64,000 bases of DNA from Natronosporangium sp. GTDB taxonomy: Bacteria > Actinomycetota > Actinomycetes > Mycobacteriales > Micromonosporaceae. The DNA is taken from the NCBI GenBank assembly GCA_035306365.1, contig DATGOE010000206.1, forward strand, positions 5,461-69,460, given 5' to 3'. This document shows, in pieces, positions 24,815-58,983 of this stretch. Made by a program: the position numbers and the translations under genes. Each line of letters starts with the position of its first letter. Within the stretch, counting starts at the first letter, position 1. The notes under the pieces are model-generated. The model was not told the DNA's origin and ran no database searches. It worked only from the letters and a program-made list of their open reading frames with translations.

Positions 24815-24887
24815 GGACGCCCCGCTGAGCTCGGGTCGCATCCGGGCTCCGGCGGCATCCGCCGGCCTGTGGGGTGGACCGCACCCG

Positions 24888-24922: not shown

Positions 24923-25030
24923 TGTCGCGGCCCGGCCGCGGGAAGGCTGCTCCCAAGGGCCGGTGCCGGCATCCGGATAGCCAACCGGCGCCGGCCCGTC
25001 GTCAGCGACAGATTCCTCAGGGGAGCAGCC

Positions 25031-25393: not shown

Positions 25394-25437
25394 CGACCCG
25401 GCGCACCTCGACCGCGCACGAGGTGCATCCCGGGTCG
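25394..25437 (+). terminator. Long hairpin directly after the DsrE-like gene
   Basis: CGACCCGG-C-GCACCTCG / loop / CGAGGTGC-ATC-CCGGGTCG (two 8-bp stems); no U tract. Confidence 0.55.
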
Positions 25438-25568
25438 CACCATGGGTCGCACTCCGGGGGGCACCCACGGTGGTCGGGTTCCCCGCTCCGGGACCTCCGG
25501 CGGCGCGTCGTCCGGATGTGGGGAACTCGATCATCGCCGATGATCCGGCGACGCGTACCCTGTGCCCC

Positions 25569-26576: not shown

Positions 26577-26639
26577 CCGCCGCCGGGCGCGCGTGTGAGC
26601 GTACGGGCGTCAGCGGTCAACCGAGGCACCGGAGGGAAC

Positions 26640-27248: not shown

Positions 27249-27297
27249 GGCGGCGTCGCGCCGGCACCTCCACCCGTGCCGCGGCCGGCGGTCACGT

Positions 27298-27325
27298 CGG
27301 GTGACCGGGGCCGGCCCGTCACCCG
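27298..27325. terminator. Hairpin between convergent AhpD-like and LuxR-STAND genes
   Basis: CGGGTGAC...GTCACCCG 8-bp stem. Confidence 0.45.
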
Positions 27326-32064: not shown

Positions 32065-33354
32065 GTGACCCCGGAGGAGATCCTCGCCCTGGACCGGGCA
32101 CACGTGTGGCACCCGTACGCCCCGATGCCCGCCACCTCCGACCCGTACGTGGTGGCCTCCGCCGAGGGGGTGCGGCTGCGCCTGGCCGACGGCCGCGAGC
32201 TCATCGACGGCATGTCCAGCTGGTGGGCGGCGATCCACGGCTACCGGCACCCGGTGCTGGACGCGGCCGTGCGCGACCAGCTGACCCGGATGAGCCACGT
32301 CATGTTCGGCGGCCTGACCCACGAGCCGGCGGTACGGCTGGCCCGCACCCTGGTCGAGCTCACCCCGCCGGGCCTCGAGCACGTCTTCCTGGCCGACTCC
32401 GGGTCGGTCAGCGTCGAGGTCGCGATCAAGATGTGCCTGCAGTACCAGCGGGCGCTCGGGCGGCCGCGCCGGCGGCGGCTGCTCACCTGGCGCGGCGGCT
32501 ACCACGGCGACACGTTCCACCCCATGAGCGTGTGCGACCCCGAGGGGGGCATGCACGCGCTGTGGCGGGGCGTGCTGCCCGAGCAGGTGTTCGTGCCCGA
32601 GCCGCCGGCCGGGTTCGACACCCCGCCCGATCCCGCCTACGTCGACGTGCTGGCCGACGCGGTCGCCGCCCACGCCGACGAGCTCGCCGCGGTGATCGTG
32701 GAGCCGGTCGTGCAGGGGGCCGGGGGGATGCGGTTCCACCACCCGGGCTACCTGACGGCGCTGCGCGAGATCACCCGGGCCCACGACGTGCTGCTCATCT
32801 TCGACGAGATCGCCACCGGGTTCGGCCGCACCGGACGGCTGTTCGCCGCCGACCACGCCGGCGTCACACCGGACGTCATGTGCGTGGGCAAGGCGCTCAC
32901 CGGCGGCTACCTGACCGCGGCGGCGGTGCTGTGCACGCCGGAGGTGGCCGACGGGATCCGCTCCGGAGACGTGCCGGTGCTCGCGCACGGGCCGACGTTC
33001 ATGGGCAACCCGCTGGCGTGCGCGGTCGCCAGCGCGTCGATCGGCCTGCTGACCGGGCGGGACTGGCGGGCGGACGTCGCCCGGATCGAGGCCGGGCTGC
33101 GGGCCGGCCTGGCGCCCCTGGCCGGCCGCCCGGGCGTGGCCGACGTCCGGGTGCTCGGCGCGATCGGGGTGGTGCAGCTGGACCGGCCGGTCGACGTCCC
33201 GGCCGCCACCGCGGCGGCGGTCGACCACGGCGTGTGGCTGCGCCCGTTCCGGGACCTGGTCTACACGATGCCGCCGTACCTGGTCACCGACGCGGAGGTC
33301 GCCCGGATCACCGCCGCCGTCGCCGCCGCGGTCGCCCGGGTGACCGGCCACTAG
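32065..33354 (+). CDS. bioA: Adenosylmethionine-8-amino-7-oxononanoate aminotransferase
   Basis: [63 protein letters not shown]. Confidence 0.97.
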
Positions 33355-33478
33355 ACCGGTCACCCGGGCCGGTCGTCACACCGGGGTTGCGGGCAGCCCG
33401 GTCAGCCGTGGGCGCGCCGCGCGCGAGCGGGGTGCGCCGTGCACCTATGATCGAGGCTCTGGCAATCGGGACGAGAAG

Positions 33479-34438
33479 GTGGACGTGGCCGCACAGCAGT
33501 CGATCGTGATCAACGGTGATCTTGGCAGCGGTAAGACCACCGTGTCGGTGATGCTGGCGCAACGCCTGGGCGTGCGGCGCATCAGCGTCGGCGACATCTA
33601 CCGCCGGATGGCCGAGGAGCGCGGGATGACCGCGCTGCAGCTCAACCTGCACGCCGAGCTCGACGACGAGGTCGACGGGTATGTCGACCGACTGCAGCGG
33701 GAGATCGCCCGCTCCGGAGAGCAGCTGGTGGTGGACAGCAGGCTGGCGTGGTTCTTCTTCACCGACGCCCTGAAGGTCCACCTCATGGTCGACCCGACGG
33801 TCGGTGCCGGCCGGGTGCTCGCCCGGCCCGACAAGGCGGAGACCTACTCGTCGCTCGCCGAGGCCAAGCAGCGGCTGCGGGAGCGCAGCGAGAGCGAGCG
33901 GGTGCGCTTCCTGACGCGGTACGGCGCGGACAAGACCCGGCTGCGCAACTACGACCTGGTGTGCGACAGCACCCGGGCGCAGCCCGAGGAGATCGTCGAG
34001 CACGTGATCGCGGCGTTCGAGGGCCGGCTGGCGCCGGAGGTGGTACGGGAGAACCCGCCGCTGATCCTGGCGGACCCGGCGCGGATCTACCCGACCCAGG
34101 AGATCGGGGTGCTGCGCGACCTCGACGGTGCGCCGGACACCACCCCCCCGGCCGACGAGCCGGCGCCGCCGCTGCGGCTGGGACACGCTGACGGGCACCT
34201 GTTCGTCGTGGACGGTCACCGTCGACTGAGCCAGGCCCTGCGGTCCGGCAGCCGGCTCGTCGCGGCGAGCCTGGCGGCCGAGGGTGACGAGGTGGTGGTC
34301 GGAGGGCTGTCGGCCCGCAGCTACTTCGAGGCCGAGGTCGGCCGGAGCATGATCTACGACTGGTGCGCCGCGCACGGCACCGACCTGCCGCTGCCACCGC
34401 ACCTGGCCCGCGCGGGCGCCGGCACCGTGGCCGAGTAG
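33479..34438 (+). CDS. Archaeal-type (type 2) cytidylate-kinase-like protein fused to a C-terminal ParB/Sulfiredoxin-like domain
   Basis: GDLGSGKTT, VVDSRLAWFF, RxxSERxRFxxxYG, YDLVCDST; tail has IYPTQ and FVVDGHRRL. Confidence 0.75.
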   Translation: MDVAAQQSIVINGDLGSGKTTVSVMLAQRLGVRRISVGDIYRRMAEERGMTALQLNLHAELDDEVDGYVDRLQREIARSGEQLVVDSRLAWFFFTDALKVHLMVDPTVGAGRVLARPDKAETYSSLAEAKQRLRERSESERVRFLTRYGADKTRLRNYDLVCDSTRAQPEEIVEHVIAAFEGRLAPEVVRENPPLILADPARIYPTQEIGVLRDLDGAPDTTPPADEPAPPLRLGHADGHLFVVDGHRRLSQALRSGSRLVAASLAAEGDEVVVGGLSARSYFEAEVGRSMIYDWCAAHGTDLPLPPHLARAGAGTVAE

Positions 34439-45101: not shown

Positions 45102-45899
45102 ATGGCAGAGCCGATGTCCGCGCCGTCGCTCGTGCGGCGGCAGTACGCGCGGCCGGACCAGCTCCGCACCCGGCAGAGGCTCTGGTCGTACCACACCGGT
45201 CGGTCCTGGATGGACGACGCTCTGGACACGGTGGGCGCCCGTGGCGGCGAGACCGTCCTGGACGTCGGTTGCGGGGCCGGACGGTGGCTGGCGGCGCTGC
45301 GGCGCCGTGGTCACACCGGCCGCCTGCTGGGCGTGGACATCTCGCCCGGCATGGCCGCGGCCGCCGCCGAACGCACCGGAGCGGCGGCGCTGGTCGCGGA
45401 CGCGGTCGCGCTGCCGCTGCCGGACGCGACCGCCGACGTCGCACTCGCCGCGCACATGCTGTACCACACGCCGGAAGTGCCGGCGGCGGTGGCGGAGCTG
45501 CGGCGGGTGGTGCGACCGGGAGGCGTCGTGCTCGCCACCACCAACGGCGCGCGGCACATCGCCGAGATCCGCGCCGTCATGGACGAGGCGGCGGCACGGG
45601 TCGGAGCGAGGCGGCGCGCCATCACGCCCTCGTTCACGCTCGAGAACGGCGAGGAGATCCTCGGCGCCAGTTTCACCCGCGTACGGCGGCACGAGCGGGT
45701 CGCCGCCGTCGTGGTCCCCGCGGTGGAGCCGGTGGTCGACTACGTCGCCAGCTTCGACGATCCGCAGCTCGTCGGCCTGCCGGCCGGCACACCGTGGCGG
45801 GACTTCCTGGCGGAGGTCGACCGGATCGTGCGCGACCACGTTCGACGGCACGGCGCGTTCACCGTCACCCGCCACCCCGGCTTCTTCGTGTGTGCCTGA
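45102..45899 (+). CDS. Class I SAM-dependent methyltransferase
   Basis: VLDVGCGAG, GVDISPGM, ADAVALP, HMLYH, FTLENG. Confidence 0.9.
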   Translation: MAEPMSAPSLVRRQYARPDQLRTRQRLWSYHTGRSWMDDALDTVGARGGETVLDVGCGAGRWLAALRRRGHTGRLLGVDISPGMAAAAAERTGAAALVADAVALPLPDATADVALAAHMLYHTPEVPAAVAELRRVVRPGGVVLATTNGARHIAEIRAVMDEAAARVGARRRAITPSFTLENGEEILGASFTRVRRHERVAAVVVPAVEPVVDYVASFDDPQLVGLPAGTPWRDFLAEVDRIVRDHVRRHGAFTVTRHPGFFVCA

Positions 45900-45966
45900 C
45901 CGGCGACATCGCGTACATCACTGCGCGGGTCGCTATGCGGCACGCTCCCGAGTAAGGCAAACTATG

Positions 45967-45981
45967 TCCTGATAATCGGGA
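45967..45981. promoter_or_regulatory. Putative IclR operator upstream of iclR
   Basis: TCCTGA-TAA-TCGGGA; same motif recurs at 51794-51808. Confidence 0.75.
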
Positions 45982-45997
45982 ACTCTGGAGCGGAGAC

Positions 45998-46771
45998 ATG
46001 GGCGTCACGGGAAGCAACCACCGCAACCTCACCGCCGACCGGGCGATCCAGCTGCTGTTGCTGTACGACGATGACCGGCCGGTCCTGACCGCCGCCGAGG
46101 TCGCGGAACGGCTGGGGATGTCCCGTAGCACGACCTACCGCTATCTTCAGAGTCTCCGGGCGGCCGGGATGCTGGAGGAGGACGCCCGTGGCTTCCGGCT
46201 GGGGATGCGGATCTTCCAGCTGGCACACATCGCCCGGAAGGGACTCGGCCTCTCCGAGGTGGCGCTGCCAGTCATGCGCCGCCTGGCTGAGCAGACCGGA
46301 GAAACCGTCCTGCTCACCCGGCGTGTGGGACACAGGGTCGTATGCCTGGAACGGGAGGAGAGCACCCACCACCTGCGCCTGTCCTACGAGCGCGGACAGA
46401 TCCTGCCCATCCACGCGGGGGCCTCCGGCCTGGTGCTGCTGGCCTGGCTCACCGCGCAGGAACTCGACGAGGTGCTCCGGGCCGCTCCGCTGGAGCAGTT
46501 CACACCCTCGACCACCACCGATCCTCAGGTGCTGCGCGCGCGTCTCGCGGAGATCCGCAAGGTCGGCTACTGCGTGACCTTCGGGGAGCGCGATCCCGGG
46601 GTGGTCGGGGTCGCCGCGCCCGTGCGGGGACGCCACGGCGCGGTTGTGGCCGGCCTGAGCGTCGTCATGCCGCAGCCCCGGATGGATGTCGACATGCTGC
46701 AGTCGACCATCGACCTGGTGACCACCTCGGCGGAGGAGATCGGCGCGGCGGTGCGCCTCATCGACAGCTGA
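45998..46771 (+). CDS. IclR family transcriptional regulator
   Basis: ADRAIQLL, EVAERLGMSRSTTYRYL, GASGLVLLA, GVAAPV. Confidence 0.95.
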   Translation: MGVTGSNHRNLTADRAIQLLLLYDDDRPVLTAAEVAERLGMSRSTTYRYLQSLRAAGMLEEDARGFRLGMRIFQLAHIARKGLGLSEVALPVMRRLAEQTGETVLLTRRVGHRVVCLEREESTHHLRLSYERGQILPIHAGASGLVLLAWLTAQELDEVLRAAPLEQFTPSTTTDPQVLRARLAEIRKVGYCVTFGERDPGVVGVAAPVRGRHGAVVAGLSVVMPQPRMDVDMLQSTIDLVTTSAEEIGAAVRLIDS

Positions 46772-46802
46772 GGACCGGGCCGGCCCGGGCCGGATGACGG
46801 CG

Positions 46803-47963
46803 TCAGTACGACTTCGGCATGCCGAGGGCACGCTGTCCGAGGTAGGACAGGACCAGGTTGTTGCTGACCGGGGCTATCTCCAGCAGTTTCGTCTCCCGGA
46901 ACTTGCGTTCGACGTCGTACTCCCTGGCGAAGGCGTTGCCGCCGTAGGCGGTCATCGCGGCGTTGGCGGCGCGCCAGGCCGCGGTCGACGCCAGGTACTT
47001 CGCCAGGTTCGCCTCCACACCACACCGTGCGCCCCGGTCGAACAGCGCGGCAGCCTTGAAGCGCATCAGGCTGGCCGCCTCCACCGCCGCGTACGCCTCG
47101 GCGATGGGAAACTGCACGGCCTGGTTGGCCGCGACCGGCTTACCGAACACCGTCCGGGACGCGGCGTAGGCGGACGCCCGCTCGACGAAGAACCGACCGT
47201 CACCGACCGCCTCGGAGGCGATCAGGATCCGCTCCGCGTTCCAGCCGTCGATGATGTAGCGGAGCCCTTCCCCTTCCTCCCCGATCCGGTTCTCCACGGG
47301 TACCTCCAGGTCGGTCAGAAAGACCTGGTACGTGTGGTGGTTGAACATGACCGGGATCCTGGAGACCTGCACGGCGTCGCCGGCGCTGCGCAGGTCGACC
47401 AGGAGGACGGACAGCCCTCTCGTGGCCGGACCCGACGAGGGGAGCGGAGACGTGCGCACGAGCAGGAGCATGAGGTCGGAGTACGCCACGCGGGAGATGA
47501 AGGTCTTCTGACCGTTGACGACGTACCGGTCTCCCTTGCGGACGGCCGTCGTTGAGATCTTGGTGGTGTCGGAGCCGGCATCCGTCTCGGTGATGCCGAA
47601 GGCCTGCAGGCGCACCCGCCCGGCGGCGATGTCGGGAAGGTACGCTGCCTTCTGCTCCGGGCTTCCGTGCCTGAGCAGAGTGCCCATGGTGTACATCTGA
47701 GCGTGGCACGCGTTGGCGTTGCCACCGGAACGGTGGATCTCCTCCAGGATGATGCCCGCCTCCGTGATGCCGAGTCCGCCACCGCCGTACTCCTCGGGGA
47801 TCAGGACCGACAGCCACCCGAGCTCGGTGAGCGTCCGCACGAACTCCTCCGGGTAGTCTCCGGTGGCCTCCAGTCGCTGCCAGTAGCTGCCGGGAAACCG
47901 GGCACAGACCTCGCGGATGGCCTCGGCGATCGCGACCTGGTCCTCGGTGAGATCGAAGTGCAT
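46803..47963 (-). CDS. Acyl-CoA dehydrogenase
   Basis: LIPEEYGGGG, FGITETDAGSD, NGQKTFIS, AERILIASE, YGGNAFAREYDVERKFRE. Confidence 0.93.
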   Translation of the reverse strand: MHFDLTEDQVAIAEAIREVCARFPGSYWQRLEATGDYPEEFVRTLTELGWLSVLIPEEYGGGGLGITEAGIILEEIHRSGGNANACHAQMYTMGTLLRHGSPEQKAAYLPDIAAGRVRLQAFGITETDAGSDTTKISTTAVRKGDRYVVNGQKTFISRVAYSDLMLLLVRTSPLPSSGPATRGLSVLLVDLRSAGDAVQVSRIPVMFNHHTYQVFLTDLEVPVENRIGEEGEGLRYIIDGWNAERILIASEAVGDGRFFVERASAYAASRTVFGKPVAANQAVQFPIAEAYAAVEAASLMRFKAAALFDRGARCGVEANLAKYLASTAAWRAANAAMTAYGGNAFAREYDVERKFRETKLLEIAPVSNNLVLSYLGQRALGMPKSY

Positions 47964-47972
47964 GGCTGCCTC

Positions 47973-49010
47973 CTATGAGGGAGCGTCGCCCGAGAAGCTG
48001 GTGGAGCGCCAGAGGTCGGTCGCCGTCAGGAAGCGGTTGAGCTCGCCGGACAGGTCGTCGGTAGCGGGCACGTACGCGACGATGCAGCGGGTCGATCCGG
48101 CCTGCTCGTACTCGGCGAGCTTGGCGGGGAGCCGGGTGAGATCGCGGTCGGCGTACATGGGGACGCTGTCGACCATCTCGTCGGGGATGAGCGCGCGAGC
48201 TGCCGCAAACCCCTGGCTGCGGTGTGCGGCCTTGACGGCGGTGACGACCTCGCCCCATCCCATCTTCGTGAGGGTCTCGGAGTAACCGCGCTGCAGTGAG
48301 TAGAACGTGAGGACCTTCTTCAGCGCCCACCGGGCGACCGCCGGGTCCGCGGCGAGTGACACGCGCACCTTCGAGACGACCTCGAGGCTGTCGGGGTCGC
48401 GACCGGCGTCGCGGGCCCCGCTGCGGAAGTCGTCGACGATGCGCCGGATCATCGGCGGGTCGGCCATGTTGATGACGATGCCGTCGGCGATACGCCCGGC
48501 CAGACGCGCCATCTGCGGCCCGAGACCGGCGATCCAGATCCGCAGGGGTTCGGAGGGCGGCCGGAACGCCATCTTGAACGATCCGTGGGTGCGGTGGAAG
48601 TCACCGTCGTAGTCCGGGACACGTTCTCCGGAGTAGGCGGCGCGGAGGATCTCGACGTACTCCCTCATCCGCCGCAGTGGCCGGTCGAAGGTCTGTCCGT
48701 GCCAGCCCGCGATGACCGGGTTGCCGACCCCGAGCCCGAGGATGAGCCGGTTGCCGGACAGCTCGTTGAAGGAGGCCGCCTGCAGGGCCAGGGTGATGGG
48801 GGAGCGGCCGTAGATGTGGTAGATCGCCGTCCCCAGCATGATGGTGGAGGTCGTGGCGGCCATGGCCGACAGGAGCACCATGGGGTCACGCGAGTTCGAC
48901 TCGCCCTTCCATACCGCACCGAAACCGACCCGCTCGGCCACCTGCGCCGACTCCAGGCAGATCCTCATCGGGATCTGCGCGGCGGAGTTGAACTCCGTGT
49001 CGATGATCAT
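47973..49010 (-). CDS. LLM-class flavin (probably F420)-dependent oxidoreductase, Mer-like
   Basis: AERVGFGAVW, SGNRLILGLG, RMREYVEILR, GPQMARLAGRIADG. Confidence 0.88.
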   Translation of the reverse strand: MIIDTEFNSAAQIPMRICLESAQVAERVGFGAVWKGESNSRDPMVLLSAMAATTSTIMLGTAIYHIYGRSPITLALQAASFNELSGNRLILGLGVGNPVIAGWHGQTFDRPLRRMREYVEILRAAYSGERVPDYDGDFHRTHGSFKMAFRPPSEPLRIWIAGLGPQMARLAGRIADGIVINMADPPMIRRIVDDFRSGARDAGRDPDSLEVVSKVRVSLAADPAVARWALKKVLTFYSLQRGYSETLTKMGWGEVVTAVKAAHRSQGFAAARALIPDEMVDSVPMYADRDLTRLPAKLAEYEQAGSTRCIVAYVPATDDLSGELNRFLTATDLWRSTSFSGDAPS

Positions 49011-49040
49011 GCGACTCTCCTCCCGTGATGGCCGGCCCGC

Positions 49041-49805
49041 TCAGCGCGTGTACCAACCGTGCGGATCGAGCCGGCTGCGGATGAGATCCAGCTGCTCGGC
49101 CGTTGGTGCGGGGGTCTCGGCCGGCGCTCCTCTGAGCAGCGGGATCGGCGTGTCGGCGACGACCGCGTCGGGGTCCTCGCCCGGATGCACACTGTCAAGG
49201 ACCGCTCCCTGCGGGCCGATGGCGATGACGGCGCGGTCGGTCACGATCGCGCACGTCCCTCCACCGGTGAGCCCGAACTGGTCGCGAGGGCGGCCCCGCA
49301 CCATCCGCCCGGGGCTGGTCACGAAGGGCAGCACCCGGGCGAACTTGCGCGGCTGGTGGCTCATGATGACCACGGTGCGGGCCGCGTGCGAGGCGATGTC
49401 GTTGCCGCCTCCGGAGCCGTTGAAGCGCCGCCGCGAACCGTCCTCGGCGACCACCTCGGTGGTGTTGATCGATCCCCATTGGTCCACCTGCAGGGCACCG
49501 AGCATTCCCAGGGTGACACGCCGGCCGTGGAGCATGACGCCCAGGATCTCCAGCATCGACCCGAAGGACGACCCACCCTGCCACATGCGCGGGTCCGCGA
49601 TGCCCATCGCCGGCTCGGTCGGGTCGGGCTCGAACACGCCGATCTCCAGCAGCAGGCGGGTCGACGGGGCGTGCGTGTACCGCGCCAGCAGGGCGGCGAC
49701 CTGCGGCAGCCCAAGCCCGACGATGGCGACGTCCCCGTCGCGGACCTGAAGGGACCCGGCCACGGCCAGCATCTCGCCCCGGGTCCAGGCCGGCCTGGCC
49801 GTCAT
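49041..49805 (-). CDS. Class I CoA-transferase beta subunit (GctB/PcaJ-like)
   Basis: VGLGLP, LLLEIG (catalytic Glu position), LGALQVDQWGSINT, GSGGGNDIA, FVTSPG. Confidence 0.88.
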   Translation of the reverse strand: MTARPAWTRGEMLAVAGSLQVRDGDVAIVGLGLPQVAALLARYTHAPSTRLLLEIGVFEPDPTEPAMGIADPRMWQGGSSFGSMLEILGVMLHGRRVTLGMLGALQVDQWGSINTTEVVAEDGSRRRFNGSGGGNDIASHAARTVVIMSHQPRKFARVLPFVTSPGRMVRGRPRDQFGLTGGGTCAIVTDRAVIAIGPQGAVLDSVHPGEDPDAVVADTPIPLLRGAPAETPAPTAEQLDLIRSRLDPHGWYTR

Positions 49806-50656
49806 GCCGCCGCCTTGGACAGGAACGCGTCGAACGTGCCGGTGCCGAAGACCCACTCGTCCAGATAGGCCGCCGTGCCTGCGGCATCCGCCGCCGCCTG
49901 GGCGTACCGCCTCAGGTGGGCGCCGTCGTAGTCGTAGCGCCCGAACACCGCGGTGGGGTACGCGCCCCGGGGTGCGGCGACCACCGCGTGGACGAGGGCA
50001 GCCGGAATGTGCACGTGCGACGGGTCGATGGCACCTACGTCGACCACCTCCTCGGCCAGGACGATGACGGTGTCGGCGGCCCGGACCGTCTCGGGAATGC
50101 TCCAGGTGGGCCCGGCGATGACGGCGTTCCCGGCGGTGTCGGCGACGTCGACGTGCACCACGGCGACGTCGGTCCGCAGGGGCGGCAGGACCAGACACGG
50201 GGTCCCGTCGAACGGATCCTCCGCGAGGCGTGCGTGGCCGCCGGCGATGAGCGCCTGTGCGAGGTCGGAGCCGAGCAGGGAGCGCGTCGCGATGAACGGC
50301 AGGCCCAGCGCACCCGCGTGCAACCGCAGCGTCAGCGCCAGGGCCGAGTACTCGACCAGTCGCAACGTACCCGCCATGGCGGCCCGGTTGACCGCGTGCA
50401 ACGGCCCGAAGCGGTCCAGCGATCCGCCGCCGTAGGAGAGGTCGTCGACCGCGCCCGCGGCCACCAGCAGGTCCGTCTCCATCCCCCCGATGACCTGGGT
50501 CAGGGACAGCCGGTGACGGCGCGCCCGGACCAGCTCGTGCGCGAACGCGACAGCGTTTCGCGTGATGGCGAAGCCGCACAGCGCCAGCCTCGTCCCGTCC
50601 CGGATGTCCGCCACGACGTCGGCGAGGCTCTCGCGACGGTCGGGTCCGGCCCTCAT
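49802..50656 (-). CDS. Class I CoA-transferase alpha subunit (GctA/PcaI-like)
   Basis: IRDG...GF, AGALGLPF, LLGSD, DVAVVH...ADTAGN, AEEVV, APRGAYP, YDYD. Confidence 0.88.
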   Translation of the reverse strand: MRAGPDRRESLADVVADIRDGTRLALCGFAITRNAVAFAHELVRARRHRLSLTQVIGGMETDLLVAAGAVDDLSYGGGSLDRFGPLHAVNRAAMAGTLRLVEYSALALTLRLHAGALGLPFIATRSLLGSDLAQALIAGGHARLAEDPFDGTPCLVLPPLRTDVAVVHVDVADTAGNAVIAGPTWSIPETVRAADTVIVLAEEVVDVGAIDPSHVHIPAALVHAVVAAPRGAYPTAVFGRYDYDGAHLRRYAQAAADAAGTAAYLDEWVFGTGTFDAFLSKAAA

Positions 50657-51690
50657 GGGTGCGCCGGCTCCGGATCCAGACCGAGCAGCCGCGCCGGCGT
50701 GTCGCACAGGATGGTCTTCACGTCCGCCGGCTCCACCCCGAACCCGAGCAGCGCGCGCACGAACACGCGCATGCCGGCGACGCTGTCCAGGTGCAGCACC
50801 TGCCCGAAGTCCGACCCGCTGACGCACCGGGCCGGACCGATTCTCCGGATGACCTCGACCGTCTCCATCGGATCCTGCACCGGCTGGTACAGAGACGGGA
50901 TCATCGGCTGGCAGTACACCCCGACATATGTGCCCAGATCCGCCAGGGTCGCCATCTCGGTCAGCAGCAGCTTGTTCAGCTCCAGCAGCGGGTGGTCCAG
51001 CACCGTGCGGACCCCCAGCTCGTTGGCGAGTGTGCACAGGGGCAGCAGCTCCTCGTAGTCGGTGTGTCCCAGCCCGATGGCGACACCCGCCTCCGCCGCG
51101 ATCGACATCACCTCCCGGACCTCCGGAAGGACCTCTCCCGAGGGGGCCACCAGGCGGATGTACTCGTCCGGGTCAGGGTCCAGGTTCGCCGAGCGCGCCC
51201 ACCCGTAGGACCTGAACGTGGGGAACCAGATGCACTTGAAGTTCGGATACTTCAGGGCGACCCGGACCGCCTGGGGGTTGACACCGAGGTTGAGGCCCAG
51301 CCCGCCGTAGACCTCCACCCGGTGTGTCAGGCGCCCGTCGAGGACCATCTCGTCGATCTGCTTCTGCACCAGGTACGCCGCACCGGCGGTGAGGTTCCAG
51401 TGGTCCTTGAACGCGACCGCCCGCATCTTCGCGCGTGACGCGTCGACCGCGATCTGCAGCATGTCCTGCGAACGGGGAACGAAGTCGGGGAAGGCGTGGA
51501 TGTGGTGGTCGATCGCGCCCTCGAGGAACTCGTCCTCGACCCCCGGACGGATCGCCGTCAGCCGGGGATTGTCCTTGAGCATCTCATAGAAGTAGGTGCG
51601 CGAGTTCAGCTGGCGTGCCCGCGCCACGGTCAGGGTCCGACCCACGCGCTGTTCCCCGGCCGCCTCCGTAAGGACATGCTCGTCACACAT
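50653..51690 (-). CDS. Amidohydrolase-superfamily metalloenzyme (DUF6282-like)
   Basis: GAIDHHIHAFPD (HxH), FKDH, IWFPT, GLGH, DHP, GSDFGQ. Confidence 0.8.
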   Translation of the reverse strand: MCDEHVLTEAAGEQRVGRTLTVARARQLNSRTYFYEMLKDNPRLTAIRPGVEDEFLEGAIDHHIHAFPDFVPRSQDMLQIAVDASRAKMRAVAFKDHWNLTAGAAYLVQKQIDEMVLDGRLTHRVEVYGGLGLNLGVNPQAVRVALKYPNFKCIWFPTFRSYGWARSANLDPDPDEYIRLVAPSGEVLPEVREVMSIAAEAGVAIGLGHTDYEELLPLCTLANELGVRTVLDHPLLELNKLLLTEMATLADLGTYVGVYCQPMIPSLYQPVQDPMETVEVIRRIGPARCVSGSDFGQVLHLDSVAGMRVFVRALLGFGVEPADVKTILCDTPARLLGLDPEPAHP

Positions 51691-51793
51691 GTGCCTGGTC
51701 GCCTCGCATCCGTGTCCGCTGTCTCGACCTGGTCCGGGCAGGGGTCGCCGGCCGCGGAGCTGTGGCTCAGCCGCGCCACCGGGCGACATAGTG

Positions 51794-51857
51794 TCCTGAT
51801 ATTCAGGAGATCCAGCCCTTATATCGGGAAGATAGACGGAGAGGCCTGCCACGTCAA
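51794..51857 (-). promoter_or_regulatory. Promoter of leftward catabolic operon with tandem operator sites
   Basis: Minus strand TTGACG (51852-51857)-17-TATCTT (51829-51834); perfect palindrome TCCTGA-TAT-TCAGGA 51794-51808 and partial site 51815-51829. Confidence 0.8.
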
Positions 51858-51979
51858 CAGTCGGGGGCTGCCCGCAACCGGGCCGCCTACGATGCGGGAT
51901 CCGCACCGGTCCACACTTTGTGCTGTTCAAGGCCGTCCCGATCAACCTGGCTCGCCGCCCGAGGCCGGCTGGTCCCTTC

Positions 51980-52043
51980 TTGACAACCCGCTGGTGTCGC
52001 CATAGCCTCCCAGATCTAAAGCCAACCGTTTCGTTTATCGGGA
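51980..52043 (+). promoter_or_regulatory. Promoter of rightward ABC/lyase operon with partial operator sites
   Basis: TTGACA-17-TAGCCT (51980-52008); TCCCAG at 52008 and TTATCGGGA ending 52043. Confidence 0.8.
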
Positions 52044-52088
52044 ATCAACCTCGACCCCACGCCCGGCACCGACGACGGGAGTTGAGCC

Positions 52089-52934
52089 ATCCGACCAGCC
52101 ACCACGTCCCCAGCAGCCGCGTCGGGCGCCACCGCCGCCGCGGTACGCCGACGGCCGTGGTCGCTGCCGGGTCGGCGGGCGGGCAAAGGGGCGGTGGGCG
52201 TGGCTGCCGCGGTGGGCGTGTGGGAGTTGCTCCGCGCCGTCGGGGTGTTCCCGGAGCCGTTCGTCCCCTCGTTCGGCTCGATCGTCATCGCCGCGGGGCG
52301 GGATCTGCTCAACGGGACGCTCCTGCGCCCGCTCGCGACCACGTTGACCGCCTGGTCACTGGGTCTGGCGATCGCGGCCGGCCTGGGTCTGGTGCTCGGC
52401 GCGGCGATGGGCACGTGGTGGTGGGCCGCCGCCACCGGCAGGATCCTCGTCCGCTTCCTGCGTCCCGTCCCGTCCGTGGCGCTCATACCGGTCGCCATCC
52501 TCGCCGCGGGACTGGGCCTGAAGATGACGCTCATCCTGGTGGTCTTCGCCAGCGTGTGGCCGATCCTGATCAACACCGCGTACGGTGTCCGCGAGGTCCC
52601 CCAGCCGTACCGCGACACCGGCCGGGTGGCCGGGCTGTCAGCGTCCCGGGTGGTGCTGCGGGTGACCGTTCCCGCGGCGCTACCGGCCGTGGCGACCGGC
52701 ATCCGCGTCTCCGCCGCGATCGCGCTCGCGGTCACGATCGCCACCGAGCTGATCACCGGCACGGGAGGGCTGGGCGCCCACATCCAGACCGCGCGTCAGG
52801 GCGCCCAGTTCGTGGACGCCTACGCGGGCATCCTCCTTGGTGGATTGATCGGCCACCTCATCAACATCGTCGCTCTCGGGCTGGAGCGGCGGGTGTTGTT
52901 CTGGAGTGCCGAGCACAGGAAGCAGCGATCATGA
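52089..52934 (+). CDS. ABC transporter permease (SsuC/TauC/NitT type)
   Basis: FLRPVPSVALIP, WPILINT, PAALP..ATGIR; first canonical start is GTG 52194, but the frame is open from an SD-preceded ATC at 52089. Confidence 0.88.
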   Translation: MRPATTSPAAASGATAAAVRRRPWSLPGRRAGKGAVGVAAAVGVWELLRAVGVFPEPFVPSFGSIVIAAGRDLLNGTLLRPLATTLTAWSLGLAIAAGLGLVLGAAMGTWWWAAATGRILVRFLRPVPSVALIPVAILAAGLGLKMTLILVVFASVWPILINTAYGVREVPQPYRDTGRVAGLSASRVVLRVTVPAALPAVATGIRVSAAIALAVTIATELITGTGGLGAHIQTARQGAQFVDAYAGILLGGLIGHLINIVALGLERRVLFWSAEHRKQRS

Positions 52935-53722
52935 GCACGGCACGGGCCGCGGTGGCAGCCAGCGCGGAACGGTTGCTCGGCTGGCTGGCGTTCGTGGGTG
53001 CGGTGGCGGCCTGGCAGGTGGTCGCGACCATGGGAGAGGCCCGCTCGGTCGCCTCCTTCGGCGACTCCGCCCGCGCCCTGGTGGACATCCTGTGGGGTCC
53101 GGACCTGGCTGACCACGTCCTGCCCTCACTGGGCAGGGTGGTGGCCGGCTTCGGCGTGACCGCCCTCGTCGGGATCGGGTTCGGCCTGCTGTTGGGAACC
53201 TTCCACGGAATAGAGCCGTGGGTCCGGCCGGTGATCGAGTTCCTACGGGCGGTGCCGCCGCCGCTCATCGTTCCCGTGGCGATGATGATCATGGGCTTGT
53301 CCGGGAACGTGGTCATCACCGTGATCGTCTTCGGCACGCTCTGGCCCGTACTCATCAACACCCTCGACGGCGCCAGCCGGGTCGAGCCGCTCTACCTCGA
53401 CACCGCGCGTGTCTTCCGCAGTCCCCGTTGGGTGGTCCTGCGGTCGGTGGTCCTCCCCGCCAGCCTGCCGACGATCATGGCCGGCCTGCGGACCGCCCTG
53501 AGCATCTCACTGATCATGCTGGTGCTGGGCGAGATGCTCGCCTCCAGCACCGGTATCGGCTACCTCATCCTCACCTCGCAGCAGACCTTCGACGTGCCCG
53601 CCACCTACGGAGGGGTCCTCCTGCTGGGCCTGCTGGGCTGGACGTTCGACACGCTGTTCGTGGTCATCGAGCGGCGGGTCCTGCGCTGGAACAGTGAGTT
53701 TTCCGGAGGAAGCGATGTCTAG
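52931..53722 (+). CDS. ABC transporter permease (SsuC/TauC/NitT type)
   Basis: EFLRAVPP, WPVLINT, LPASLPTIMAGLR, GIGY. Confidence 0.9.
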   Translation: MSTARAAVAASAERLLGWLAFVGAVAAWQVVATMGEARSVASFGDSARALVDILWGPDLADHVLPSLGRVVAGFGVTALVGIGFGLLLGTFHGIEPWVRPVIEFLRAVPPPLIVPVAMMIMGLSGNVVITVIVFGTLWPVLINTLDGASRVEPLYLDTARVFRSPRWVVLRSVVLPASLPTIMAGLRTALSISLIMLVLGEMLASSTGIGYLILTSQQTFDVPATYGGVLLLGLLGWTFDTLFVVIERRVLRWNSEFSGGSDV

Positions 53723-54542
53723 CGGCGCTTCGCTCGAGTGCCGGGACCTGGTCAAGAGCTTTCCGACACCGGCCGGGGAGCGGAGGGTCATCGAGCATCT
53801 GTCGATGCGTGTCGAGCCGGGCGAGTTCGCCGTCATCCTGGGACCGTCGGGCTGCGGAAAGACGACGCTGCTGCGGACGCTGAGCGGGTTGCTGCCCGTC
53901 GACCACGGTGAGGTCCGGGTGGACGGCCACGTCGTGCGGGACGTCCCCGACGACGTGGCCGTCGTGTTCCAGGAGTACAACAAGAGTCTCTTCCCGTGGC
54001 TGACCCTGGAGCGCAACGTACGGTTCGCGCTGCGCGGGCTCGGTAAGGCGCAGGCACGCGAGCGCGCCCGGGCCGCGCTGAGGAGGGTAGGTCTCGCCGA
54101 GTCCGCCCAGCAGTACCCGTGGCAGGTCTCCGGCGGGATGCAGCAGCGGGCGGCGATCGCGCGCGCTCTCGCCTGCCACGCCAACCTCGTCATCATGGAC
54201 GAGCCCTTCGCATCGGTCGACGCGTTGACCCGGATCCACCTCGAGCTCATGCTGCTGGACATCTGGACCGAGTCACGGTTCACCGTCGTCTTCGTCACGC
54301 ACGACATCGAAGAGGCGGTCCTGCTGGCCGACCGGATATTCGTCCTGTCCAGCCGCCCGGCGCGGGTAAAGGACGAGATCGTGGTCGGACTTCCCCGGCC
54401 GCGGGACCCGATCGCGACCAAGGCGCTGCCGCGGTTTCAGCAACTGCGGGAGCGCATCTTCGACCTCATCGAAGGCGCTGCGGGGGCGCCGATGCGCCGG
54501 GATGAGGGTCTGTCGGCACACCATCTCACCGCTGGCGGTTGA
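53715..54542 (+). CDS. ABC transporter ATP-binding protein (TauB/SsuB type)
   Basis: GPSGCGKT, SGGMQQR, MDEPF, FVTHDIEEA. Confidence 0.95.
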   Translation: MSSGASLECRDLVKSFPTPAGERRVIEHLSMRVEPGEFAVILGPSGCGKTTLLRTLSGLLPVDHGEVRVDGHVVRDVPDDVAVVFQEYNKSLFPWLTLERNVRFALRGLGKAQARERARAALRRVGLAESAQQYPWQVSGGMQQRAAIARALACHANLVIMDEPFASVDALTRIHLELMLLDIWTESRFTVVFVTHDIEEAVLLADRIFVLSSRPARVKDEIVVGLPRPRDPIATKALPRFQQLRERIFDLIEGAAGAPMRRDEGLSAHHLTAGG

Positions 54543-54551
54543 CCTAGGAGA

Positions 54552-55535
54552 GTGAACATGGGACGCAGCAAGCCAGTGATGGCCCTCGTGGCCACCCTCG
54601 CCACCGGTGTGGCGCTGTCCGCCTGTGGCGGCGGTGACAGCGGCCAGGACGGCGCGACCGAGATCACAGTCGGGATCATCCCGGTGGCGGACGCGGGCGG
54701 CTACTTCGTGGCCGACGCCCAGGGGCTGTTCGAGAAGCACGGCCTCACGGTGACCGCGTCGAACATCGCCGGAGGCGCGGCGCTGGTCCCGGCGCTGGAG
54801 TCCGGCGCCACCAACGTGGGATTCTCGAACCTCGTGTCGGTGCTCCAGTCCGCGGCACAAGGGTTCAACACCAAGTGCATCGCCGGAACCCTGCGCAAGC
54901 CGGTGACCGGCCGCAACCTCGCCCTCGTCGTCTCGCCGGTGTACGCCGACGAGATCACCACGGCCAGGGACCTGGAGGGCAAGACCATCGCGGTGAACAC
55001 GCTGGGCAACATCAACCAGCTGGTGGCCCAGGCGTGGATGGCCGACAGCGGCGCGGACGCGGGCTCGCCCCGCTTCGTGGCCGTCAACTTCCCCGACATG
55101 CCGGTCGCACTCATGAACGGTGACGTCGCCGCGGCGGTGACCGACGAGCCCTTCACCACCGTCTCACTGGAGGGCGGTGCCAAGCTCCTCGAGCCCCGTC
55201 CGTACCAGGCGATCGCGGCCGACCCGGTGTTCAGCTGTTGGCTGGTGGACGGCGCGTGGCTAGAGGAGAACCGGTCCGCCGCCGAGGCCTTCGTCGCGGC
55301 GCTGGAGGAGGCGGACGCCTACCTGGAGGCGCATCCTGACTACCTGCGCGAGATCCTTCCCGACTACACGAGCCTTTCACCGGAGCTCGCCTCGCAGATC
55401 GAGCTACCCGCGATCACGACCGAGATGAGCACCGCCGACCTCGCCGCCTGGGTGGGTCCGGCGCGCGAGTTCGGTCTCATCGACAAGGAGGTCGACGTCG
55501 ACTCGATCCTGGTCCACCTTGGTTCCCGTTCCTGA
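54552..55535 (+). CDS. ABC substrate-binding lipoprotein (SsuA/NMT1-like)
   Basis: Lipobox LSAC; GLFEKHGL, DLEGKTIAVN, GDVAAA..EPF. Confidence 0.88.
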   Translation: MNMGRSKPVMALVATLATGVALSACGGGDSGQDGATEITVGIIPVADAGGYFVADAQGLFEKHGLTVTASNIAGGAALVPALESGATNVGFSNLVSVLQSAAQGFNTKCIAGTLRKPVTGRNLALVVSPVYADEITTARDLEGKTIAVNTLGNINQLVAQAWMADSGADAGSPRFVAVNFPDMPVALMNGDVAAAVTDEPFTTVSLEGGAKLLEPRPYQAIAADPVFSCWLVDGAWLEENRSAAEAFVAALEEADAYLEAHPDYLREILPDYTSLSPELASQIELPAITTEMSTADLAAWVGPAREFGLIDKEVDVDSILVHLGSRS

Positions 55536-55581
55536 CCGACACGTCGCCGTTCCCGCCCGCGAGGCAGGAGGGAGGTTCTCA

Positions 55582-56457
55582 ATGGCGCGGCCGACGAGGT
55601 CGTGGATGTTCGTGCCCGGCAACGTCCAGCGCTTCCTCGACAAGGCTGCCGGCAGCAGCGCGGACGTGGTCTTCCTCGACCTCGAGGACGGCGTACTGCC
55701 GGAGAGCAAGTCGCGGGCACGCGACATGGTGGTCACGGCCCTGCGGCGGCAGTGGCACGGACCTTTGCGATTCGTGCGGGTGAACGCCGTCGACACGCCC
55801 TGGTTCGAGGACGACCTGGCCGCGATCGTGGTGCCCGGCCTTGACGGAGTGTGCCTCCCCAAGGTGGAGGACGCGGAGGTGGTGCGCGACGTGGCAGCGC
55901 GGCTGGCGCGGTGGGAGTCCCGGAACGGCCTCGCGCCGGGATCCGTACGGGTCGTTGCCGCGATCGAGACCGCGCGCGGCCTCCTCCGCGCCCACGACGT
56001 CGCGGCGAGCGATCCCCGCGTCCTGGGGCTGATGTTCGGTGCTGAGGACTTCGCGCTCGACCTCGGCCTGGGCACCCACCGCGAAGCCGAGGCGGCCGAG
56101 TTGCTGGTCGCGCGCTCGTCGCTGGTGGTGGCGGCCGCGGCCGCACGGGTGCAGTCCATCGACGGCGTCTTCCCCGATCTTGACGACCCGGAGGGGCTGC
56201 TGGCCGATGTCGTGCGCGCGCGCCGGCTCGGCTTCAGCGGCAAGTCCACCTTCAACCCGCGGCAGGTCGAGGTCATCAACCGCGTCTTCAGCCCTCAGCC
56301 GGACGAGATCGAGTACGCCGAACGGGTGGTGGCGGCGTTCGAGGCGGCGCAGGCCCGCGGCGAGGCCTCGGTGGCGGTGGGCGGGCAGCTCGTGGACCTG
56401 CCCATCGTCCGCCGGGCGCAGCGGACCCTGGAACTCGCACGAGGTGAGGACGGTTGA
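55582..56457 (+). CDS. CitE-like acyl-CoA lyase (citramalyl/malyl-CoA lyase family)
   Basis: RSWMFVPG, DLEDGV, VRVN, LPKVE, IETA, FGAED, GKS, NPRQV. Confidence 0.92.
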   Translation: MARPTRSWMFVPGNVQRFLDKAAGSSADVVFLDLEDGVLPESKSRARDMVVTALRRQWHGPLRFVRVNAVDTPWFEDDLAAIVVPGLDGVCLPKVEDAEVVRDVAARLARWESRNGLAPGSVRVVAAIETARGLLRAHDVAASDPRVLGLMFGAEDFALDLGLGTHREAEAAELLVARSSLVVAAAAARVQSIDGVFPDLDDPEGLLADVVRARRLGFSGKSTFNPRQVEVINRVFSPQPDEIEYAERVVAAFEAAQARGEASVAVGGQLVDLPIVRRAQRTLELARGEDG

Positions 56458-56458
56458 C

Positions 56459-56965
56459 ATGGTGACGATCCAGGACGGTTGGCAGGGACGGTTCTTCGAG
56501 GATTTCGCGGTGGGGGACGTCTACCGCTGCCGGTACGGCCGTACCGTCACCGAGGCGGACAACATCCAGTTCACACTGCTGACCAACAACACCAACCAGA
56601 TCCACTTCAACCGCGACTACGGCGAACGGACCGAGTGGGGGCGGTGCCTGGTCAACAGCGCGCTGACGCTGTCCATTGTGGCCGGCATGAGCGTCCCGGA
56701 CGTGAGCGAGAACGGGTTCGCGCTCGGCTGGGAACGCATCGAGCTTCCCAACCCGGTCTTCCCCGGCGACACCCTCTACTCGGAAAGCGAGGTGCTGGAG
56801 AAGCGCGAGTCGCGGTCTCGCCCCACGCAGGGCATCATCAGGATCGAGACGCGCGGGTACAAGCAGGACGGGCAACTGGTCATCAGGTATGTCCGCTCCG
56901 TCATGGTCTGGAAGCGCGCCTTCGCGCCGAGCCGCGACATCTTCCCCGTCGGGAGACCGGGATGA
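56459..56965 (+). CDS. MaoC-family (R)-enoyl-CoA hydratase (RipB/Ich-like)
   Basis: GRFFEDF, GRTVTEADNxxFTLLT, IHFN, PVFPGDTL, RESRSRP. Confidence 0.9.
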   Translation: MVTIQDGWQGRFFEDFAVGDVYRCRYGRTVTEADNIQFTLLTNNTNQIHFNRDYGERTEWGRCLVNSALTLSIVAGMSVPDVSENGFALGWERIELPNPVFPGDTLYSESEVLEKRESRSRPTQGIIRIETRGYKQDGQLVIRYVRSVMVWKRAFAPSRDIFPVGRPG

Positions 56966-58149
56966 CGACCGCCGGAGACGACGGCCCGTTGGCGGGCGTG
57001 TCGGTGGTCGCCGTCGAGCAGGCGATCTCCATGCCGTTCTGCACCTTCATCCTGGCCGAGCTCGGCGCGGACGTCATCAAGATCGAGAGACCGGGAGCCG
57101 GCGACGTCGTACGCGGCTGGGACGACGTGGTGCGCGGGCTGTCCAGCGGCTACGTCTGGGTCAACGCCAACAAGCGCGCCCTGACCGTGGACCTGCGGCA
57201 GGAGAGCGGCCAACGGATCGTCCAGCGGCTCGCCGCGCAGGCCGACGTCTTCGTGGAGAACTTCGCACCGGGTGTCGGCGACCGCCTCGGCATCGGTGCC
57301 GGCACGCTCAGACGCCACAACCCGCGCCTCATCTACTGCAGCCTGTCGGGGTACGGTCAGGACGGGCCGTTCCGGGACGTCAAGGCGTACGACCTGCTCG
57401 TGCAGGGCGAGTCGGGCATCCTGCTGACCAACGGCTACCCGGAGGCGCCCGCCAAGGTGGGTCTGCCGATCACGGACCTCATCGCCGGTGCCACGGCCGC
57501 GATCGGCATCCTGGCCGCGCTCGTCGAGCGGGCACGCACCGGCCGTGGGACCTATCTCGACGTCGCCATGCTCGACTCCACGGCCCCGTGGCTGGGGTAC
57601 TTCCCCCACCGGTACTGGCACCGGGGTGAGGAACCGCCCCGGACCGGCATGCGGCACCAGTACATCTGCCCGTACGGACCGTACCGGTGCGCCGACGGGG
57701 CCTACGTCAACCTGGTGGTCGCCAGTGATGCCCACTGGCGCGCCTTCTGCGAGCGCGTCGTCGAGCAGCCGGCCTGGCTGGACGACCCGCGGTTCGCGAC
57801 GATGGAGTCCAGGCGCCGCCACCGTGACCTGGTCGAGGCCGCGGTCGAGGAGGTGATCGCGAGCCGGCCCTCCGGCGAGTGGCTGAGCCGGCTCGACCGG
57901 GCGGGACTGCCCTACGGGCGTGTGCGCACGATGGCGAGCGTGGTCGAGCATCCGCAGCTACGCCACCGTCACGCGTTCGTGCAGGCGGACTCACCCGTAG
58001 GTCCGGTGCCCGTCGCCAGGTTCCCGTTGAGCTCGCCCCACCGGCGACGGCAGGTGCCCGGCCTGGGCCAACACACCGACCAGATCCTGTCGGAGCTCGG
58101 GTTCAGTGCCGAGGAGATCGAACGGCTGCGAGAGCGTAGGGTCGTCTGA
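56962..58149 (+). CDS. CaiB/BaiF (class III) CoA-transferase
   Basis: LAELGADVIKIERPG, NANKR, DVFVENF, SGYGQDGP, AYDLLVQGESG, PGLGQHT. Confidence 0.95.
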   Translation: MTTAGDDGPLAGVSVVAVEQAISMPFCTFILAELGADVIKIERPGAGDVVRGWDDVVRGLSSGYVWVNANKRALTVDLRQESGQRIVQRLAAQADVFVENFAPGVGDRLGIGAGTLRRHNPRLIYCSLSGYGQDGPFRDVKAYDLLVQGESGILLTNGYPEAPAKVGLPITDLIAGATAAIGILAALVERARTGRGTYLDVAMLDSTAPWLGYFPHRYWHRGEEPPRTGMRHQYICPYGPYRCADGAYVNLVVASDAHWRAFCERVVEQPAWLDDPRFATMESRRRHRDLVEAAVEEVIASRPSGEWLSRLDRAGLPYGRVRTMASVVEHPQLRHRHAFVQADSPVGPVPVARFPLSSPHRRRQVPGLGQHTDQILSELGFSAEEIERLRERRVV

Positions 58150-58299: not shown

Positions 58300-58983
58300 G
58301 TGAACCCACCGGTGATCGCGCCCAGCATCCTCGCCGCCGACTTCGCCCGGCTGGCCGACGAGGCGAAGGCCGTGGAGGGTGTGGCCGACTGGCTGCACGT
58401 GGACGTCATGGACAACCACTTCGTCCCGAACCTCACCATCGGCCTGCCCGTGGTCCGCAGCCTGCGCCGGGCCACCACCCTGCCGCTGGACTGCCATCTC
58501 ATGATCACCGACCCGGAGCGGTGGGCGGTCGGCTACGCCGAGGCGGGGGCGTACAGCGTCTCCTTCCACGCCGAGGCCTGCGACGACCCGGTGGCGCTCG
58601 CGCGCGACCTGCGGGCGGCCGGAGCACAGGCCGGCCTGGCGATCGACCGGGACACCCCCGTCGAGCCGTACCTGGAGCTCCTGCCGCAATTCGACCTCCT
58701 GCTGATCATGACGGTCAAGGCCGGCTTCGGCGGGCAGCGCTTCCTCGCGGACATGCTGCAGAAGGTCCGCGTCGCCCGACGGCACCGGGCCTCGGGACAC
58801 CTGCGGCTGCGCCTGCAGGTCGACGGTGGGATCGGTGAGGACACCATCGAGGCGGCCGCGCGGGCCGGCGCCGACGCCTTCGTCGCGGGCACCGCGGTCT
58901 TCGGCACCGACGACCCGGCCGCGGCCGTGCGGCGCCTGCGGGAGCTCGCCACCGCCGCCACCGCCGCCTCGGCCTCCACGTAG
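58300..58983 (+). CDS. rpe: Ribulose-phosphate 3-epimerase
   Basis: [40 protein letters not shown]. Confidence 0.98.

Follow-up and report, generated by a model that had tools for sequence, protein, structure and literature searches.

A 13-gene island and the question of its substrate

Which compound is degraded by a catabolic island of Natronosporangium sp. (Actinomycetota, Micromonosporaceae), and by what chemistry? In a 64,000-nucleotide stretch of this genome (GenBank assembly GCA_035306365.1, contig DATGOE010000206.1, positions 5,461 to 69,460 of the forward strand; hereafter, the window), the open reading frame (ORF) list and family scans place 13 genes between a methyltransferase gene (45102-45899) and rpe (58300-58983): iclR; a leftward operon for a DUF6282 protein, the alpha and beta subunits of a class I CoA-transferase, a luciferase-like (LLM) protein and an acyl-CoA dehydrogenase (ACAD); and a rightward operon for two permeases, the ATPase and the binding protein of an ABC importer, a CitE-family lyase, a MaoC hydratase and a CaiB CoA-transferase. 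Here, we find that the eight enzymes represent a conserved, uncharacterised pathway encoded by a real gene cluster that recurs in numerous uncultured soil and subsurface bacteria. Based on comparisons of sequence and gene context, we propose at roughly even odds (about 0.5) that this pathway performs an O2-independent, F420H2-dependent reductive opening of a CoA-activated, resorcinol-type (meta-dihydroxy) aromatic acid. That 3,5-dihydroxybenzoate itself is the substrate is a more tentative suggestion, and gallate-type acids may also qualify.

To place both operons in one pathway, we relied on 120 loci collected around DUF6282 orthologues (at least 55% identical), which formed 46 clusters after dereplication at 90%. 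All eight enzymes were encoded at one locus in 14 of these 46 clusters, and seven or more in 18, despite short contigs; no match to a described pathway was found in the open literature searched. The set stayed together, though in varying order, in lineages of several phyla, Actinomycetota and Dormibacterota among them, as a single operon in many actinobacterial and Dormibacterota metagenome-assembled genomes (MAGs) and as divergent halves in others, with the importer also close to the cluster in three cases (L002, G057 and G062). In the Binatia and some Chloroflexota the genes were scattered, and each of 12 such genomes retained one ACAD orthologue (61-67%), mostly adjoining maoC and caiB. Because the eight enzymes share one locus in 14 of the 46 clusters, we conclude that the two operons constitute one pathway.

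The features discussed below are as follows (window coordinates, strand, description).

45965..45983, no strand: putative IclR operator palindrome (TGTCCYGA-N3-TCRGGA), upstream of iclR, from a pattern search
45998..46771, plus: IclR-family regulator; nearest model PcaR/PcaU/PobR, below cut-off
46803..47963, minus: ACAD, own clade, sister to methylsuccinyl-CoA dehydrogenase (Mcd)-type enzymes
47973..49010, minus: LLM F420-dependent hydride transferase, proposed ring reductase (PDB and NCBIfam matches, cofE co-occurrence)
49041..49805, minus: class I CoA-transferase beta subunit, GctB-like, catalytic Glu kept
49802..50656, minus: class I CoA-transferase alpha subunit, from family scans
50653..51690, minus: DUF6282 metal-dependent hydrolase with an amidohydrolase TIM barrel, proposed ring hydrolase (family and structure model)
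51792..51810, no strand: second putative IclR operator, in the divergent intergenic region
52194..52934, plus: ABC permease 1, start uncertain (frame open from about 52086)
52931..53722, plus: ABC permease 2, from a family scan
53715..54542, plus: ABC ATPase, with a relative beside a 3-hydroxybenzoate hydroxylase
54552..55535, plus: NMT1-like solute-binding protein, in a clade linked with meta-hydroxy aromatic acids (binding-protein tree)
55582..56457, plus: CitE-family acyl-CoA C-C lyase (citE 239/443 and RipC 174/375 bits, score/cut-off)
56459..56965, plus: MaoC single hot-dog hydratase, RipB-like (motifs YRCR and NNTNQIHFN; RipB 180/340 bits)
56962..58149, plus: class III (CaiB) CoA-transferase of the lower module; no NCBIfam cut-off reached

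Shared regulation of the operons appears likely. The strict palindrome occurs at 4 sites in the 2.7-Mb, 78% complete host genome, 2 of them in the island, and similar palindromes precede DUF6282 or iclR at five other loci (L002, L057, L060, L061 and L184). IclR orthologues (at least 50%) stood beside the cluster in 9 of the 46 clusters, and the island's IclR would bind both palindromes. The single IclR-controlled catabolic unit of an earlier, letters-only reading of this DNA (the original prediction) is supported.

Horizontal acquisition

That reading had also listed the 13 genes, with families broadly as found here, and had noted by eye an excess of A/T-ending codons, which the profile of GC content at third codon positions (GC3) bears out: GC3 averaged 0.906 in the 13 island genes versus 0.957 in the 40 other window genes (Mann-Whitney p = 3 × 10−7), and overall GC was 0.696 versus 0.749. 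The site is empty in the closest relative (G008, Rpe 96% identical), where the methyltransferase stop is followed by rpe within about 85 bp, and in a second relative (G002) rsmB directly adjoins rpe, the methyltransferase being absent there. Searches of 40 relatives and of 400 genomes sampled from the phylum gave no DUF6282 orthologue (matches at most 36%). Because of the lower GC3 and GC, the empty site and the absence of the DUF6282 gene from relatives and phylum, we conclude that the island is a recent, horizontally acquired insertion of about 12.3 kb, as had been suspected. No integrase was seen at the island, and the sole border repeat is 8 bp. The rsmB-rpe gap appears to be an insertion hot spot, with an FHA/ABC-like gene there instead in three other relatives.

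A probable F420-linked reductase coupled to a DUF6282 hydrolase

The best PDB matches of the LLM protein were Mer enzymes and its best NCBIfam models were F420 LLM families, with no named-subfamily cut-off reached. Across 22 DUF6282-bearing genomes, cofE tracked the LLM gene without exception (present in 20 of 20 with it and in neither of the 2, both Peptococcaceae, without it); npdG, cofE, cofD and a cofH-like gene lie on the flanks of one cluster (L126), and the host genome has cofD and cofE. In the Peptococcaceae and at L128, related nitroreductases (43%) occupy the LLM position beside cluster genes; the small genes next to the nitroreductases of L128 and L015 show at best a distant relationship (20%, E = 0.012). 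Given the cofE co-occurrence and the nitroreductase in anaerobes lacking F420, the LLM protein is almost certainly an F420-dependent hydride transferase, and from the same replacement we infer a reductase rather than an oxygenase. Sulfonate desulfonation by an FMN-dependent LLM monooxygenase was ruled out (SsuD 32.5/518 and SsuA 86/163.5 bits). The 78%-complete host genome gave no above-cut-off match to F420-dependent glucose-6-phosphate dehydrogenase, npdG, benzoyl-CoA reductase (BCR) or ETF. The LLM gene lies no more than 3.5 kb from DUF6282 in 26 of 32 loci, a linkage that resembles the reductase-hydrolase coupling of urate dearomatisation, where Chloroflexota clusters have a putative F420 LLM in place of the heterocycle reductase (PMC12507026). 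As a separate observation, a second LLM paralogue (46-48%), bearing the motif WGGEANNKDP, adjoins RidA and CoxG/M/S-like genes in five Binatia genomes (L142, L144, L146, L150 and L151).

The neighbouring hydrolase had been called an amidohydrolase; the barrel stands, and the family is DUF6282 (PF19799), the Amidohydro_2 match falling below cut-off. Its structure model (pLDDT 88) is an amidohydrolase TIM barrel with the residues of that superfamily (HxH, two further His and an Asp); H63, H65, H209, H233 and D294 are invariant, as is an unusual lysine, K95, at the end of strand 2. Many generic amidohydrolases are equally good matches to the model (Z 17-20, identity no higher than 18%), and the fold therefore offers no clue to the substrate; there was no PDB sequence match or close solved relative, and an Atlas search returned DUF6282 clusters only. 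In the open literature searched (subscription papers lay outside its coverage), we found no paper naming DUF6282 and no description of an F420/CoA route for resorcylates or isonicotinate. One distant DUF6282 homologue, on Paracoccus versutus pTAV3 (L206), follows a flavin oxidoreductase (dihydroorotate-dehydrogenase-like) gene and precedes an HpcH aldolase gene in an IclR/TRAP operon beside pob/pca genes.

A probably CoA-activated, aromatic acid

A CoA-activating enzyme accompanies the LLM/DUF6282 pair in three forms. The island form was originally named only as a two-subunit CoA-transferase, its role left unexplained; it is GctAB-like, with two subunits, a beta subunit that matches GctB at E = 3 × 10−31 versus 1 × 10−8 to 1 × 10−10 for the next matches (6con and 5n0x), and an LLLEIG motif aligned with GctB Glu54, the Glu being kept in the top motif variants of orthologues. 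A non-transferase role of the IpdAB or AibAB type was ruled out, as the catalytic Glu is kept and GctB is far closer; 3-sulfinopropionyl-CoA desulfinase was also ruled out (159/600 bits). The four-gene block coaA-coaB-llm-DUF6282 stands alone at L030. In the Binatia a different CaiB (31-35%) precedes the LLM gene, with the lower CaiB kept elsewhere, and L025 encodes a benzoate-CoA-ligase-family enzyme (above cut-off, 486/375 bits) within the cluster, with no GctB match in that genome. These associations suggest that the substrate is an acid that would be CoA-activated ahead of reduction. Because the lower CaiB is kept in addition to the upper activating enzyme, two CoA steps seem to be needed, and the lower CaiB would put CoA on the carboxyl required by the ACAD.

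The importer points in the same chemical direction. Originally described as SsuABC-type, it is instead NitT/TauT-type, with two permeases and an SsuA match below cut-off (86 versus 163.5 bits). Of its nearest relatives outside the cluster, one is divergent from a 3-hydroxybenzoate hydroxylase (mobA) gene that scores 822 bits against PDB 2dkh and is accompanied by a MarR gene, and another lies upstream of an MhpA-like (3-hydroxyphenylpropionate) hydroxylase gene; the ATPase is 70% identical (over a 199-aa called ORF) to that of the importer beside the 3-hydroxybenzoate hydroxylase. In the binding-protein tree the island groups with these mobA- and mhpA-linked importers at 98/98, and terephthalate-, protocatechuate-, vanillate- and pyridine-type importers fall outside this hydroxybenzoate-type clade, which indicates that a meta-hydroxylated aromatic acid is the probable cargo. 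Together, the importer clade and the CoA-activating enzyme kept with the reductase/hydrolase pair argue for an aromatic substrate over a sulfonate or an imide. Permease 1 has an in-frame stop just upstream and its first GTG at 52194; a TTG that follows a GGGAG site within 52060-52200 is in a different frame from the permease (possibly a frameshift, an assembly error or a short N-terminus).

A lower module parallel to itaconate degradation

In the known Ict/Mcd/Ich/Ccl route, methylsuccinyl-C4-CoA is converted to acetyl-CoA and pyruvate, with PA0879 as Mcd (PMC12290011). Like that route and Yersinia RipABC, the lower module combines a CoA-transferase, an ACAD, a hot-dog hydratase and a CitE lyase suited to a substituted succinyl-CoA; unlike them, it has a single-domain hydratase not of the PA0878 type, no MmgE/PrpD, and an extra upper module (GctAB, F420 LLM and DUF6282). 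The hydratase scored below the RipB/Ich equivalog NF038241 (179.6 versus 340 bits) and the lyase below the RipC/Ccl equivalog NF038242 (174 versus 375 bits); the lyase is 31-40% identical to lyases of pseudomonad-type clusters, and its best NCBIfam model, citE, was also below cut-off. The lower CaiB shares 53-67% identity with its counterparts in this cluster family and 40-45% with CaiB of pseudomonad-type Ich/Mcd clusters. In a midpoint-rooted tree with five synteny-defined Mcd-like proxies (PA0879 itself not included), the ACADs of DUF6282-bearing genomes formed their own clade (100/100), sister to the proxies and not inside the Mcd clade, at 56-60% identity to those of Ich-Mcd-Ict-Ccl-type clusters. 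The MaoCs likewise formed their own clade (95/94), and both families carry fixed private residues. Because the NCBIfam cut-offs were missed and the ACADs form their own clade, the lower module would act like the itaconate/methylsuccinate route without being that route. The itaconate-like lower pathway originally proposed therefore survives as an analogy of function, its membership in that family is not supported, and acetyl-CoA plus pyruvate are at most candidate products.

CitE chemistry requires a 3-hydroxy-3-carboxy acyl-CoA, so the ring-opened product should be a substituted succinate. Two Peptococcaceae MAGs (L015:13-12653 and L016) combine DUF6282 with genes for the nitroreductase, an SdhA-like flavoprotein, class I fumarase, a SucCD-like ligase, CitE, an HMGL-like protein and MmgE/PrpD, apparently an F420-free version of the pathway; the SdhA-like, fumarase, SucCD-like, CitE and PrpD set points to a parallel route for a substituted succinate. 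Elsewhere (L189, a Deinococcus plasmid, and L193 and L194), the ACAD/CaiB/MaoC module is reused with a PxpABC-like oxoprolinase, a thiamine-pyrophosphate decarboxylase and PrpD, and with lactonases, which suggests further orphan substituted-succinate pathways.

Proposed reductive ring opening

From the observed gene set, linkage, families, catalytic residues and F420 association, we infer both the substrate and every reaction of the following scheme. The importer would take up the aromatic acid and the GctAB-like transferase would form its CoA thioester; the LLM protein would add a hydride from F420H2 to give 3,5-dioxocyclohexanecarbonyl-CoA, and DUF6282 would hydrolyse this cyclic 1,3-diketone by a retro-Claisen reaction, pulling the reduction forward and leaving an acetonyl-succinate skeleton. 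CaiB would then put CoA on the terminal carboxyl, via a shift or re-activation, before ACAD oxidation, MaoC hydration and CitE cleavage to acetyl-CoA and acetylpyruvate, the latter to be split by an FAH-family hydrolase encoded outside the island. Stated in full (an LLM F420H2-dependent aryl-CoA reductase and a DUF6282 C-C ring hydrolase for ATP-independent dearomatisation of 3,5-dihydroxybenzoate or related polyphenol-derived acids, with exit via a CitE lyase rather than beta-oxidation, across uncultured soil and subsurface phyla), this proposal falls somewhat short of even odds.

The scheme has partial precedents. As in the benzoyl-CoA pathway, aryl-CoA activation would precede reductive dearomatisation, and some cluster hosts also encode class I BCR-like genes; unlike that pathway, the island lacks an ATP-dependent or bifurcating reductase, a crotonase ring hydrolase and a thiolase. 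Thauera aromatica AR-1 reportedly degrades 3,5-dihydroxybenzoate oxidatively, via hydroxyhydroquinone. Its anaerobic cluster for this same candidate substrate (cited in PMC7028382) uses a molybdenum enzyme, no counterpart of which is encoded in the island. In reductive phloroglucinol and resorcinol pathways (PGR plus DPGC; resorcinol reductase), ordinary reductants reduce meta-hydroxy phenols and a metal hydrolase, itself a relative of an amide hydrolase, then opens the ring (PMC10470551), the same logic of hydride reduction followed by metal-dependent retro-Claisen opening to a 5-oxo acid that we propose here. By analogy, a 3,5-dihydroxy pattern is the one that would make the ring reducible by an ordinary hydride donor and whose 1,3-diketone product could open to a substituted succinate. 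There is no homology, however: those systems use free phenols, an NADPH reductase or ferredoxin, and a cyclase-family hydrolase, whereas in the island an F420 LLM and an amidohydrolase barrel would work on a CoA ester, with the CitE lyase as the exit. Because the island has no thiolase, we rejected a modified ortho route through methylmuconolactone.

Sporadic neighbours, each weak alone, would fit feeders to 3,5-dihydroxybenzoate: 4-hydroxybenzoyl-CoA reductase (HBCR)-like genes near the cluster in L054, L055 and L078 (galloyl-CoA dehydroxylation by HBCR would give its CoA ester), a carotenoid/stilbene oxygenase gene at L052, in-operon ALDH and SDR genes with a decarboxylase-like gene in L004 and L011, and a LigW/gamma-resorcylate-decarboxylase-like gene in the importer operon of L002 and L223. 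HBCR-like genes were present in 4 of the 8 actinobacterial/Dormibacterota MAGs that carry the cluster and in 1 of the 400 genomes sampled, a comparison confounded by habitat and by shallower background scoring. Separately, three Actinomycetota MAGs (L235, L237 and L238) carry class I BCR-like and HBCR-like genes, suggesting anaerobic aromatic degradation in the phylum.

Several points weigh against a resorcinol-type substrate. Amidohydrolase-fold enzymes characterised so far mostly cleave C-N, C-O or P-O bonds. No FAH hydrolase is encoded in the core, and nearby FAH genes belong to salicylate/gentisate clusters (in the host genome, the FAH and nitrilase families each occur once, which favours neither reading). 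The feeder neighbours are single cases in catabolism-rich genomes, and HBCR-like genes in these hosts mostly sit with BCR and need not act on gallate. Two neighbours, 44-48% identical, carry the importer argument, and importers of this sort may have a broad range.

Competing explanations

A nitrogen-containing ring would answer the first of these objections, since C-N hydrolysis is the usual amidohydrolase reaction, and it explains the two CoA steps equally well: citrazinate (2,6-dihydroxyisonicotinate) or 2-hydroxyisonicotinate would be CoA-activated and reduced to a dioxopiperidine, and the imide opened to a tricarballylate amide and then acetyl-CoA plus oxaloacetate or its amide. Mycobacterium sp. 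INA1 is said to degrade isonicotinate in a similar manner, by CoA activation, ring reduction and hydrolysis to a substituted succinate. The citE model as the lyase's best match, the hydantoinase-like genes adjoining L182 and L076, and the putative F420 LLM of the Chloroflexota urate clusters would all fit, as would the best plasmid match of the binding protein (33%), which lies in an Arthrobacter operon with a Mo-hydroxylase, a CoA ligase, an asparaginase and tcuA. Yet that importer falls outside the island's importer clade, and the operon, a candidate that uses enzymes unrelated to those of the island plus TcuA, has no DUF6282, GctAB, ACAD, MaoC or CitE gene. The core also lacks an amidase, and the Mo enzymes adjoining clusters score as HBCR-like (787-822 bits) and share only 32% identity with their Arthrobacter counterpart. 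We consider this explanation unlikely. The Arthrobacter crystallopoietes pLDW-10 operon itself (L205:15200-36430; the related importer, an XDH-type Mo hydroxylase, two polysaccharide-deacetylase-like genes, asparaginase, CoA ligase, an MDR reductase, PaaI and tcuA) adjoins a pyridine-type LLM cluster and looks like a candidate isonicotinate-to-tricarballylate gene set.

No better placed is the original idea that the pathway starts from a cyclic imide, lactam or butenolide, reduces and opens it to methylsuccinate or itaconate (C5 dicarboxylates) and reaches acetyl-CoA and pyruvate with no further enzyme. No gene beyond the cluster would be needed for its products, the ACAD has Mcd-type enzymes as its sister group, the MaoC is RipB-like, and the Peptococcaceae set (SdhA, fumarase and PrpD) matches methylsuccinate chemistry (PMC12290011). 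It leaves unexplained a second activating enzyme tied to LLM/DUF6282, above all a benzoate-CoA ligase, and it sits poorly with an aromatic importer clade and with clade-specific residues in ACAD and MaoC. What we retain from it is the reduce-then-ring-open step; an imide, lactam or lactone is less favoured than an aromatic acid CoA-activated before reduction. Less probable still is an acyclic unsaturated acid (citraconate from methylgentisate, or aconitate), CoA-activated, reduced and re-oxidised to another isomer; DUF6282 would then serve as hydratase, isomerase or half-amide hydrolase. L002 and L032 have gentisate-type clusters next to them, an aconitase-like gene lies beside the Binatia acad-maoC-caiB genes, and a maleate-isomerase-like gene follows citE in L021 and L149; but simpler hydratase routes exist, and such an acid gives no reason for tight reductase-hydrolase coupling or an aromatic-type importer. 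Readings not listed here carry a similarly small share.

If the resorcinol-type proposal is correct, the island would encode a ring reductase of a new kind, one that transfers hydride from F420H2 to an aryl-CoA, and provide the first function for DUF6282. It would also open a route by which little-studied bacteria such as Binatia, Dormibacterota, Chloroflexota and Acidobacteriota could use the resorcinol-type acids that tannins, stilbenes and alkylresorcinols release. Even if the guessed substrate proves wrong, what is left is an orphan pathway of eight conserved enzymes whose chemistry follows a defined order.

Elsewhere in the window, the pyr operon is interrupted (24332-30015 and 32065-34438) by DinB-like, DsrE-like, adenosine-deaminase-like, AhpD-like, large LuxR ATPase, bioA-like and kinase-like genes, all named by eye from their N-termini.

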